The position numbers and the translations under genes were made by a program. Shown one piece after another: positions 8,243-10,535 of a stretch of 28,897 bases of DNA. Source of the stretch: a virus (lineage: Duplodnaviria; Heunggongvirae; Uroviricota; Caudoviricetes); the IMG/VR virus record IMGVR_UViG_2778261084_000005, positions 1 through 28,897 of that record; one strand, given 5' to 3'. The notes below the pieces were generated by a model, which ran no database searches, was not told the origin of the DNA, and saw only the letters and a program-made list of their open reading frames with translations. Each line of letters begins with the position of its first letter. Position 1 is the stretch's first letter.

Positions 8243-8497
8243 ATGAACCAGAAAACACTTGAAGATGTAATCAAAACTGTTCGCGTTTCTGTTGTGGCCG
8301 ACGTTTGTGGTGTCAGCCAAAGAGCAATCTACAAATGGATGGATAACGGAAAATTGCCTCGCACAGAATATACCGGCGAAACAAATTACGCTGAAAAAAT
8401 CGCTCATGCATCAAACGGATTATTTTCTGCCGATGCAATTTTAACTATTGGCAGAAATAAAACTACTACGAAAAAGCTGATGGGAGTTGATTCATGA
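8243..8497 (+). CDS. ydaS: Cro/YdaS-like small DNA-binding protein (start ambiguous: 8171 or 8243)
   Basis: ATG at 8243 is preceded by a GAGGG ribosome-binding site and leaves room for a divergent promoter shared with racR. Confidence 0.7.
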   Translation: MNQKTLEDVIKTVRVSVVADVCGVSQRAIYKWMDNGKLPRTEYTGETNYAEKIAHASNGLFSADAILTIGRNKTTTKKLMGVDS

Positions 8498-8916
8498 AAA
8501 TCAAGCATGAGCACATCGAATCAGTGTTGTTAGCCCTGGCAGCCGAAAAAGGGCAGGCGTGGGTCGCTAACGCAATTACTGAAGAATATCTGCGCCAGGG
8601 GGGCGGCGAATTGCCCCTGGTACCAGGCAAGGACTGGAACAATCAGCAGAATATCTATCATCGTTGGTTGAAAGGTGAAACGAATGCGCAAAGGGAAAAA
8701 ATTCAGAAACTGATCCCTGCGGTTCTGGCAATTCTTCCTCGCGAGCTGCGTCACCGACTCTGCATCTTCGATACCCTGGAACGCCGTGCATTACTGGCGG
8801 CACAGGATGCACTGAGTACGGCAATTGATGCGCATGATGATGCAGTCCAGGCCGTTTACCGTAAAGCACATTTCAGCGGCGGCGGTTCTCCTAGCGATTC
8901 TGTCGTAGTGCATTGA
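8494..8916 (+). CDS. ydaT: YdaT-like protein (140 aa)
   Basis: ATGA overlap with ydaS stop at 8494-8497; conserved position after the cro-like gene. Confidence 0.8.
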   Translation: MKIKHEHIESVLLALAAEKGQAWVANAITEEYLRQGGGELPLVPGKDWNNQQNIYHRWLKGETNAQREKIQKLIPAVLAILPRELRHRLCIFDTLERRALLAAQDALSTAIDAHDDAVQAVYRKAHFSGGGSPSDSVVVH

Positions 8917-8929
8917 TTGAAATTAATCG

Positions 8930-8951
8930 TACCGAACTGTTTTGTTCGGTA
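8930..8951 (+). other. Perfect 8-bp inverted repeat hairpin (TACCGAAC-TGTTTT-GTTCGGTA) just after ydaT
   Basis: Read directly from sequence; no clear U-tract, so possibly an attenuator or protein binding site rather than a terminator. Confidence 0.35.
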
Positions 8952-8960
8952 TCAGTTAAA

Positions 8961-8981
8961 TGTAACGCTGCGAGCGTTACA
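8961..8981. repeat. Palindrome TGTAACGCTGCGAGCGTTACA, copy 1, 13 bp upstream of ydaU start
   Basis: Perfect 9-bp arms; same family as copies at 9153 and 9360. Confidence 0.6.
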
Positions 8982-8993
8982 AGGTGAAAACAA

Positions 8994-9782
8994 ATGGCTT
9001 CAAACTGGATAAAGCTCGAAGTTATTACGCCGGATAAGCCGGAAATATTCAGGCTTGCTGAGATTCTGAATATTGATCCAGATGCCGCATTAGGGAAAGT
9101 CATTCGCTTCTGGGCATGGGCGGATCAACAAATGATAGACGGTAACGCAGAGTGTAACGCTCGCGGCGTTACAAAAAGTGCAATAGATCGCATCACTTTT
9201 ATGGCTGGTTTTGCTGATGCGTTAATTCAGGTTGGATGGCTGGTCGAAACTAATGGTGTGTTGTCGCTTCCTAACTTTGAGCGCCATAACGGGAAAAGCT
9301 CTAAAAAACGGGCGGTTACAAACGAGAGAGTAACAAAAATACGAGAACTGAAACGAAAAGGTAACGCTGCCAGCGTTACAAAAACGGATCAAAAAGCGTT
9401 ACCAGAGGAAGAGAAAGAGGAAGATATAAATACTTATCTCCCCCTAAATCCCCCTCGCCAAAAACGAGCGTCTAAAAAATTCGAACCGGAGGCTATCGAG
9501 CTGCCTGACTGGTTGCCGGAAACACTCTGGCATGAGTGGGTTCAGTTCAGGCAGGCATTGCGAAAACCGATTCGAACGGAGCAGGGCGCTAACGGGGCGA
9601 TACGGGAGCTGGAAAAATTCCGCCAGCAGGGTTTTTCACCTGAGCAGGTGATTCGACACAGCATCGCCAACGAATACCAGGGCTTGTTCGCGCCGAAAGG
9701 TGTTCGACCTGAGACGTTACTCCGACAGGTTAACACCGTCTCGTTACCGGATAGTGCGATCCCGCCAGGCTTCAGGGGGTAA
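8994..9782 (+). CDS. ydaU: Replication initiator/organiser-like protein (262 aa), lambda O analogue
   Basis: Directly precedes a DnaC-like loader; contains internal iteron-like DNA repeats followed by an AT/purine-rich stretch. Confidence 0.7.
   Translation: MASNWIKLEVITPDKPEIFRLAEILNIDPDAALGKVIRFWAWADQQMIDGNAECNARGVTKSAIDRITFMAGFADALIQVGWLVETNGVLSLPNFERHNGKSSKKRAVTNERVTKIRELKRKGNAASVTKTDQKALPEEEKEEDINTYLPLNPPRQKRASKKFEPEAIELPDWLPETLWHEWVQFRQALRKPIRTEQGANGAIRELEKFRQQGFSPEQVIRHSIANEYQGLFAPKGVRPETLLRQVNTVSLPDSAIPPGFRG
9153..9173. repeat. Palindrome TGTAACGC-TCGCG-GCGTTACA, copy 2, inside ydaU
   Basis: 8-bp perfect arms; an additional half-site GGTAACGC lies at 9141-9148. Confidence 0.6.
9360..9380. 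repeat. Palindrome GGTAACGCTGCCAGCGTTACA, copy 3, inside ydaU
   Basis: 9-bp perfect arms; half-sites GTTACAAA / GTAACAAAAA also occur in 9311-9340. Confidence 0.6.
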
Positions 9783-9788
9783 CTGACC

Positions 9789-10535
9789 ATGAAAAATATT
9801 GCGACAGGCGACGTTCTTGAACGTATCCGCAGACTGGCCCCGTCACATGTAACCGCGCCATTCAAGACGGTAGCGGAGTGGCGCGAGTGGCAACTTTCCG
9901 AAGGCCAGAAACGTTGTGAGGAGATCAACCGTCAGAATTGTCAGTTGCGGGTGGAAAAAATTCTGAATCGCTCTGGCATCCAGCCATTGCACCGCAAATG
10001 CTCGTTTTCGAATTACCAGGTGCAGAACGAAGGGCAGCGATACGCGTTGAGTCAGGCGAAATCCATCGCTGATGAACTGATGACCGGGTGTACAAATTTT
10101 GCGTTCAGCGGAAAACCTGGTACCGGGAAGAACCACTTAGCGGCAGCTATCGGGAATCGCCTGCTGAAAGACGGTCAGACAGTGATTGTGGTTACCGTGG
10201 CTGATGTTATGAGTGCCCTGCACGCCAGCTATGACGACGGGCAGTCAGGCGAAAAATTTTTGCGGGAACTGTGCGAAGTGGATCTGCTGGTTCTTGATGA
10301 AATTGGCATTCAGCGCGAGACGAAAAACGAGCAGGTGGTACTGCACCAGATTGTTGATCGCCGGACAGCGTCGATGCGCAGCGTGGGGATGCTGACAAAC
10401 CTGAACTATGAGGCCATGAAAACATTGCTTGGCGAGCGGATTATGGATCGCATGACCATGAACGGCGGGCGATGGGTGAATTTCAACTGGGAGAGCTGGC
10501 GTCCGAATGTCGTCCAGCCAGGAATTGCGAAGTAA
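9789..10535 (+). CDS. ydaV: DnaC-like helicase loader, AAA+ ATPase (248 aa)
   Basis: Walker A ([15 protein letters not shown]) and Walker B (LLVLDEIG) motifs. Confidence 0.85.

Follow-up and report, generated by a model that had tools for sequence, protein, structure and literature searches.

In a 28,897-nt stretch of viral DNA (IMG/VR virus record IMGVR_UViG_2778261084_000005, Caudoviricetes; the stretch at its full length is referred to as the window), we identify, at positions 8961-9454, what is most probably the origin of replication of this lambdoid, Rac-like prophage. Comparison of related sequences indicates that three GTAACGC palindromes in this region are probably where the initiator binds, in an origin housed within a mosaic, YdaU-type initiator gene (8994-9782, + strand, 262 amino acids; assigned from a PHROG match, similarity to YdaU and a structural model), and that a purine-only and AT-rich stretch at 9404-9439 is the probable melting region. 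The observations behind this reading are the sites themselves, selection at the DNA level on both the sites and the tract, covariation of the sites with the N-terminal domain of the initiator, and a layout like that of the phage lambda origin (oriλ).

Our search of the window with the pattern GTAACGC-N(1-7)-GCGTTAC returned exactly three matches, at 8962-8980, 9154-9172 and 9361-9379, with no match in any of 100 dinucleotide-preserving shuffles of the window, i.e., a chance expectation of none. This confirmed the preliminary description of this DNA, made from the sequence alone, which had reported three palindromes at 8961-8981, 9153-9173 and 9360-9380; with these flanks they read TGTAACGCTGCGAGCGTTACA, TGTAACGCTCGCGGCGTTACA and GGTAACGCTGCCAGCGTTACA, respectively. 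The window contains 11 copies of the 7-mer GCGTTAC, its complement included, against 2.75 expected, and 8 of these 11 copies lie within 8962-9402. The upstream palindrome (TGTAACGCT-GCG-AGCGTTACA, 8961-8981) is located in the 77-bp spacer that separates ydaT from the initiator gene, with its core ending 13 nt 5′ of the ATG, beside the Shine-Dalgarno sequence AAGGTGA. Palindrome 2 (TGTAACGC-TCGCG-GCGTTACA, 9153-9173) occupies initiator codons 54-60, which in our structural model form a predicted loop between helices 29-48 and 61-68, and palindrome 3 (GTAACGCTG-C-CAGCGTTAC, 9360-9380) occupies codons 123-129, within the inter-domain linker; none of the three is assigned to a strand. The spacings between the clusters are 192 and 207 bp. 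Both internal copies share one reading frame of the open reading frame (ORF) 8994-9782 and encode GNAECNARGVTK and GNAASVTK, in agreement with the repeated GNA..VTK peptide motifs recognized earlier.

Single half-sites accompany the palindromes. For example, a + strand GTAACGC at 9142-9148 lies 12 nt (start to start) ahead of palindrome 2, in a 12-nt insertion restricted to a Rac-like subgroup (alignment columns 529-540); this half-site had been located at about 9141-9148 before, with the wrong orientation. The half-sites previously placed at about 9311-9340 are present, and are degenerate: GCGGTTAC at 9312-9319 and GTAAC at 9330-9334, which together mark the start of the linker cluster (9312-9334, no strand assigned) and which we class as possible sites at most. 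A full half-site that was absent from the earlier list, GCGTTAC at 9396-9402 (+ strand), ends this cluster, 1 nt 5′ of the purine tract.

We compared approximately 250 related loci, drawn from phages with annotation, from IMG/VR contigs and from genomes sampled at one per species. In the class of loci with GTAACG half-sites (73 distinct loci), the arms GTAACGC/GCGTTAC are invariant, while variation of 1.1-1.9 bits is seen at the five central bases of the upstream copy, of the copy at +148/+160 of the gene and of the copies at +357 to +412; the palindrome at +148/+160 is present in every locus of this class. Examination of the codons within the arms demonstrated that synonymous third positions are frozen among 62 distinct sequences (Gly GGT in 59 of 60, Asn AAC in 62 of 62 and Val GTT in 61 of 61), whereas the other conserved four-fold codons of the same N-terminal domain show 1.2-1.9 bits, and the constraint is thus on the DNA rather than on the peptide. 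On this comparative evidence, the palindromes are real, functional DNA sites that are conserved as DNA.

Distant relatives keep the layout with two intragenic clusters but switch the half-site, with at least seven half-site classes present among them (the class of a locus being the commonest inverted 5-mer of its linker). GTCCGC/GCGGAC half-sites are present in epsilon15, phiPSA1 and many others, GTAGAC/GTCTAC half-sites in Ralstonia and Cupriavidus elements, and the further classes are GTCAC(G)/(C)GTGAC and, in single loci, GTCGG, GTGGC and CTAACG. A typical linker array consists of two direct and two inverted half-sites (→ → ← ←) at a spacing of approximately 11-12 bp, with the terminal half-site often degenerate across loci. 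Codons 1-100 of a gene contain 2-6 further copies of the half-site class of its own linker, as against 0.1-0.8 of the other classes, and both intragenic clusters of one phage change class together. Judged from these alignments, the half-site class covaries with the N-terminal domain of the initiator. Initiators of the GTAACG and GTCCGC classes are both named from the same enteric genera, e.g., Klebsiella (with sites read only in phage and prophage loci), which makes a host factor unlikely as the binding protein.

Directly after the terminal half-site is a 21-nt purine-only tract on the + (coding) strand (AGAGGAAGAGAAAGAGGAAGA, 9404-9424), with an AT-rich stretch at 9424-9439 directly 3′ of it; this is the order, purine-rich and then AT-rich, that the preliminary description had given for the DNA following the internal copies. 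The segment GAAAGAGGAAGATATAAATACTTATCT (9413-9439, no strand assigned) is the AT-rich, least stable duplex of the gene and the putative unwinding element. The 25-mer at 9413-9437 is the least stable of the whole ORF, at -25.4 kcal/mol versus a regional mean of -33.4 (standard deviation 3.1), which is approximately 2.6 standard deviations above that mean. Across the initiator family the tract takes the form (GAGAA)4, and in the enteric GTAACG group (GAGGAA)2-6, followed by AT-rich sequence; it is invariably on the coding (non-template) strand, directly 3′ of the last half-site, and is maintained from Vibrio to metagenome-assembled genomes of Planctomycetota. The junction, i.e., half-site, then C or T, then AGAG..., is present in 125 of the 147 distinct ORFs of the family and is seen across half-site classes. 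When the tract is defined by its peptide only ([RK]EE[KR][RK][RK]E), 378 of 379 arginine codons within it are AGA, compared with 10% elsewhere in the same ORFs, and in ORFs of at least 58% G+C the count is still 124 of 125. Codon usage of this kind indicates that the purine tract is held at the nucleotide level, and it is the most conserved element of the predicted origin. Since the tract is fixed from enterics to Planctomycetota, on the coding strand and after the last site, it may work as a sequence-specific single-strand landing site or by a physical property, beyond mere AT-richness; candidate properties are a very stable R-loop formed by the purine-rich transcript, and an intramolecular triplex of the homopurine mirror repeat under supercoiling. 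No published account of this origin or of its purine tract was found in the literature searched, and the Eru paper on the replication regions of Shiga toxin (Stx) phages does not mention iterons or origins.

Further motifs flank the tract. The interval from palindrome 3 to the terminal half-site contains a GATC (9385-9388) that many Rac-like relatives retain; many members of the initiator family carry a GATC directly 3′ of the purine tract (GAAGATCTAAA), and a link to Dam/SeqA is possible. The C-tracts CCCCCTAAATCCCCC (9440-9454, + strand) form the right edge of the swapped module, encode PLNPP and sit exactly where similarity to K-12 ydaU starts. Motifs like CCCC-N-CCCC occur 3′ of the AT-rich stretch in Ralstonia and epsilon15 relatives too. 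The C-tract motif could be a site of module exchange or form the GC-rich border of the melting region.

The arrangement closely parallels oriλ. Lambda contains four 18-bp dyad-symmetric iterons at +348 to +432 of gene O, compared with +318 to +408 for the linker cluster of the window (palindrome 3 and half-sites), and an 18-purine coding-strand run at +453 to +470 of O, compared with +410 to +430 for the purine run of the window. Both therefore place dyad-symmetric sites of 18-19 bp in an inter-domain linker, with a purine-only, AT-rich coding-strand stretch after them, and in both a two-domain initiator adjoins the gene of a helicase-loading partner. The earlier suggestion of a lambda-O-like arrangement inside the initiator gene is strongly supported by this correspondence in iteron position, together with the DNA-level conservation and the covariation described above. 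Lambda differs in having one tandem array of four iterons, with no iteron half-sites elsewhere in or before O, whereas the window has three clusters at intervals of approximately 200 bp, including one upstream of the gene and one in its domain-coding part. The purine run of lambda is also of a different sequence from the (GAGGAA)n/(GAGAA)4 tract of the window, which is itself conserved far beyond the initiator family of the window. A BLASTP comparison of the initiator with lambda O gave a best E value of 0.26, which is not significant, and there is no match to the Pfam family Phage_rep_O. Since lambda has this layout at the same distance into gene O, the predicted origin appears to be a variant of the known origin-inside-initiator-gene arrangement, which would work like oriλ with an initiator outside the O family.

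Based on this arrangement, we propose the following course of initiation. Rightward transcription after derepression would lead to production of the initiator, whose N-terminal winged-helix domains would bind as dimers to the 19-bp sites GTAACGC-N5-GCGTTAC, with contacts to the arms and not to the centre, and further subunits would occupy the half-sites one helical turn (approximately 12 bp) away. Three clusters would be filled in this way, starting approximately 32 bp upstream of the start codon and approximately 160 and 367 bp into the gene, with the end half-site of the last cluster 1 nt from the purine-only tract. Assembly of the initiator, perhaps bridging the clusters and aided by transcription through the gene, would then melt 9404-9439, and the C-terminal YdaU-type domain would recruit the DnaC-like loader YdaV together with host DnaB.

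Several points weigh against this proposal. Unlike those of lambda, the sites are spread over approximately 440 bp in three clusters, and the spacings of 192 and 207 bp have no obvious helical phasing. Part of the covariation stems from the location of the internal sites, within the very sequence that encodes the covarying domain. The structural model is moderate only, with a mean predicted local distance difference test (pLDDT) score of 67, and the residues that would read the half-site are not identifiable from it. Binding by the initiator, melting at the tract, firing of the origin, recruitment of the loader and a regulatory role of the upstream copy are, moreover, steps that we infer.

The palindromes could instead be autoregulatory operators of the initiator gene only, with the origin elsewhere in the prophage. 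Plasmid Rep proteins, which bind inverted repeats as dimers for autorepression, are a precedent for such a role, and the position of the upstream core by the Shine-Dalgarno sequence, conserved in several spacers, is in keeping with it. The upstream palindrome does not code for protein, and at least six unrelated intergenic contexts contain it, with conserved arms and a variable centre and often with an extra half-site 12 nt ahead. Many relatives lack the upstream copy, however, and it is absent from those whose upstream gene abuts or overlaps the initiator start codon. Furthermore, a crude consensus scan, which weak promoters could escape, identified no sigma-70-like + strand promoter over 8961-8981 or in the spacers of three relatives (L058, L061 and L049), one of which has a terminator-like hairpin just upstream. 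No + strand terminator was called either, the only look-alikes being on the minus strand. For the operator role that the preliminary description had given to the upstream copy, there is thus conservation of the site but no overlapping promoter, and the role is plausible but unsupported. We regard the upstream copy as a candidate third initiator site, possibly autoregulatory; it may serve as a third anchor, act as a roadblock to transcription, or form an RNA hairpin beside the Shine-Dalgarno sequence. Operators alone would also not account for a terminal half-site locked to a nucleotide-constrained purine/AT tract that is the least stable DNA of the gene, or for a layout as in oriλ, and palindrome-pattern and 7-mer counts revealed no other repeat cluster in the window; we therefore consider it unlikely that the sites are operators only.

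Another phage or host regulator (a YdaT/CII-like or Cro/YdaS-like protein, the repressor, IHF or DnaA) might bind the sites; in favour of YdaT are its nature as a DNA-binding tetramer, its gene immediately upstream and a YdaT-box-like repeat at 8913-8930 that adjoins the palindrome. We rejected YdaT as the palindrome binder. The mapped box of K-12 YdaT is ATGATT-N6-AATCAA (PMC11879457) and that of its CP-933P homologue is TTGATT-N6-AATCAA (PMC9986795), both different from the palindromes, and K-12 encodes a 94%-identical YdaT and contains no GTAACGC palindrome, which argues that YdaT is not the binding protein. The identity includes the H56-R57-W58 segment, in which mutation of H56/R57 abolished binding and W58 maintains the fold (PMC11879457). 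What lies upstream in relatives that carry the same sites is unrelated (a cytosine methylase, Rha-type or KilAC regulators, small unknown ORFs), the sole gene constantly linked to the sites is the initiator itself, and the presence of different half-site classes among initiators from the same enteric genera also speaks against such a regulator, which makes this explanation highly improbable. The repeats might also be by-products of coding, i.e., of a duplicated GNA..VTK peptide, or hairpins in the mRNA, with no protein-binding role as DNA, in line with the shared frame and similar peptides of the internal copies and with a spacer RNA that folds well (z -5.0), the upstream palindrome forming a 9-bp stem. 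This is contradicted by the non-coding upstream copy, by arms whose synonymous positions are frozen around an encoded centre that varies, by the invariance of these arms, with no compensatory pairs found in them, by the conservation of isolated half-sites, and by the switching of entire classes together in both clusters, and we give it hardly any weight. For the purine tract only, its identity might be kept to provide a short stretch of homology at which initiator genes exchange modules rather than for initiation, given that the mosaic junction with K-12 ydaU lies directly 3′ of the tract and that the same 23-mer is present in initiators with different N-terminal families. Such a role appears improbable, as the tract is identical across phyla where exchange is unlikely, has a fixed 1-nt junction to the last half-site and coincides with the stability minimum, and as the analogous purine run of lambda has a different sequence.

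Returning to the protein that we propose as the initiator, its full length matches phrog_2509, "replication initiation protein" (E 5e-88), with no match in Pfam, and searches of its N-terminal domain against Pfam, NCBIfam and PDB sequences returned nothing usable. Residues 139-262, i.e., the C-terminal 124 residues, are 81% identical to YdaU of the K-12 Rac prophage, with the last 87 residues 100% identical and the DNA at 9525-9800 showing 97% identity to K-12 Rac, whereas residues 1-138 are unrelated to K-12 YdaU. By these comparisons the protein is a mosaic of the YdaU C-terminal half and 136 N-terminal residues from a family without a Pfam entry, so that the name ydaU given to the gene in the preliminary description holds for the C-terminal half and not for the N-terminal DNA-binding domain. 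An AlphaFold2 model of residues 1-146, with pLDDT values of 72-93 in its core, contains helices at 16-25, 29-48, 61-68 and 73-80, a β-hairpin at 84-91 and a basic helix at 102-123, and we class the N-terminal domain as a predicted winged helix; the alignment behind this prediction is shallow, as two protein-database profile searches gave mostly near-identical enteric sequences. The protein would accordingly comprise a winged-helix N-domain (approximately residues 12-100), the basic helix, the site-encoding linker and the YdaU-type C-domain. Foldseek searches against viral models returned members of the family itself first, followed by "replisome organizer", Lin1244-like and DUF1376 proteins with weak scores. 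Matches to replisome organisers were likewise weak (Phage_rep_org_N at E 0.026 in 1 of 11 members; phrog_4880, "replisome organizer", at E 0.0066; Foldseek E 2e-3 to 0.3), i.e., the likeness is at the level of the fold and is not significant in sequence. Several prophage copies (L025, L042, L046-L048 and L052) have truncated or frameshifted initiator genes, with ORFs of 339-504 nt, and retain the palindromes; in L025, similarity stops exactly at the junction of terminal half-site and purine tract. Many Pseudomonas, Salmonella and Pantoea records give family members the name "Pyocin large subunit(-like)", which looks like a propagated misannotation.

Immediately downstream, a gene at 9789-10535 (+ strand) encodes a YdaV-like, DnaC/IstB-type AAA+ protein (IstB_IS21 E 5e-19, Bac_DnaA E 9e-9; annotated ydaV), presumed to be the helicase loader and the partner of the initiator C-terminal domain; relatives combine the same N-domain with DnaB-, DnaC- or P-like neighbours. 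Upstream of the initiator are an HTH (helix-turn-helix) repressor gene, a small HTH gene and ydaT (8494-8916), which is the order of the Rac immunity and replication genes. K-12 Rac shares this gene order, with a racR-like repressor, ydaS-like, ydaT, initiator and ydaV genes, and its ydaT-ydaU spacer is 12 nt long rather than 77 bp. K-12 YdaU, however, contains a DUF1376 N-terminal domain (E 3e-26), for which the protein of the window has no match, and K-12 ydaU contains different repeats, namely four or five AGATGTTCAAACA-like copies and an inverted TGTTTGAACAT (L001 2753-2860, MG1655). These repeats are followed by a purine/AT-rich stretch and CCCCCTAAATCCCCC (L001 2916-2938), at a position equivalent to that of the linker cluster of the window, and they are a candidate for the core of oriJ. 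The proposal that the region is the Rac-type origin therefore does not hold in the sense of K-12 Rac oriJ: with a different N-terminal domain and different sites, the origin of the window would be a module of different specificity built on a shared YdaU/YdaV framework.

When viral contigs were scanned for exact matches to the 23-mer AGAGAAGAGAAGAGAAGAGAAGA of the purine tract, at least 120 contained it. Among the matches listed, 111 contigs have enough upstream sequence, and 87 of these carry the N-terminal family of the window, at a median of 396 nt upstream; in the other 24, the tract is located at approximately residues 100-200 of other initiator-like ORFs, including ORFs that match Lin1244_N (E 5e-13) and Phage_rep_org_N (E 1e-5 and 4e-5) and one with a weak DUF1376 match. 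Contigs with the 23-mer in initiator ORFs of other families include L255, L268, L274, L283, L300, L354 and L370. In the cases inspected, these replisome organisers (Phage_rep_org_N, Lin1244_N and DUF1376) have their own direct or inverted repeat array just ahead of the identical (GAGAA)4 tract; for example, three copies of CATGTCCGAAAATCCGGACGC precede the 23-mer in L300. The tract being common to several initiator families, each with its own repeats, it behaves as an origin-like element that is independent of initiator specificity, which suggests that phage origins have an unwinding or priming element in common. That (GAGAA)4/(GAGGAA)n is a universal core element of phage origins, whatever the adjoining initiator family or half-site specificity, is a tentative extension that we find rather doubtful; if true, it would offer a mechanistic handle on the "transcriptional activation" of lambdoid origins.

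Origins inside initiator genes and initiators that read inverted repeats have precedents beyond lambda. G38P of SPP1 is a replisome organiser, with oriL inside gene 38. Rep proteins of iteron plasmids are winged-helix proteins that bind an inverted-repeat operator as dimers and iterons as monomers. The window resembles these plasmids in the winged-helix domain, in the combination of inverted repeats and single half-sites and in the site just ahead of the gene, and is unlike them in that no promoter was found over the upstream site, all strong sites are inverted repeats, and the module is a phage module with a separate loader gene. In plasmids, the module was present in 2 phage-like records among 72,556.

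Our survey of complete Escherichia coli genomes demonstrated that 679 of 5,426 carry at least 80% of 8900-9800, and a further group that includes K-12 matches the C-terminal third only. The identical module is present, for example, in E. coli 7/2 (NZ_CP023820, around 1,551,331-1,552,231). The region is therefore a concrete candidate origin for a very common E. coli prophage module, and the finding extends to an initiator family of several thousand sequence clusters that have only the database labels "hypothetical" and "DNA replication domain protein" or, in error, "pyocin large subunit". The occurrence of at least seven half-site classes on one protein scaffold represents a natural specificity series for DNA reading by winged helices, one that might also serve for building orthogonal pairs of origin and initiator.

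Detailed examination of the region upstream of the initiator gene also showed two YdaT-type boxes, at 8487-8504 and 8913-8930, which bracket ydaT and are distinct from the palindromes. The box at 8487-8504 is a perfect TTGATT-CATGAA-AATCAA over the ydaT start codon, and the one at 8913-8930, TTGATT-GAAATT-AATCGT, covers the ydaT stop codon directly left of a hairpin and the upstream palindrome and has no counterpart in K-12 Rac. Relatives of the epsilon15-like and Vibrio kinds have a C-5 cytosine methyltransferase gene that runs over the initiator start (L005 842-2011 and L006 504-1508). The hairpin between ydaT and the initiator gene has an 8-bp stem (TACCGAAC-TGTTTT-GTTCGGTA, 8930-8951), and in relatives its left arm is GCCGGAC, with pairing kept through G·U, which suggests a role at the RNA level (processing, stability or attenuation) rather than DNA binding.

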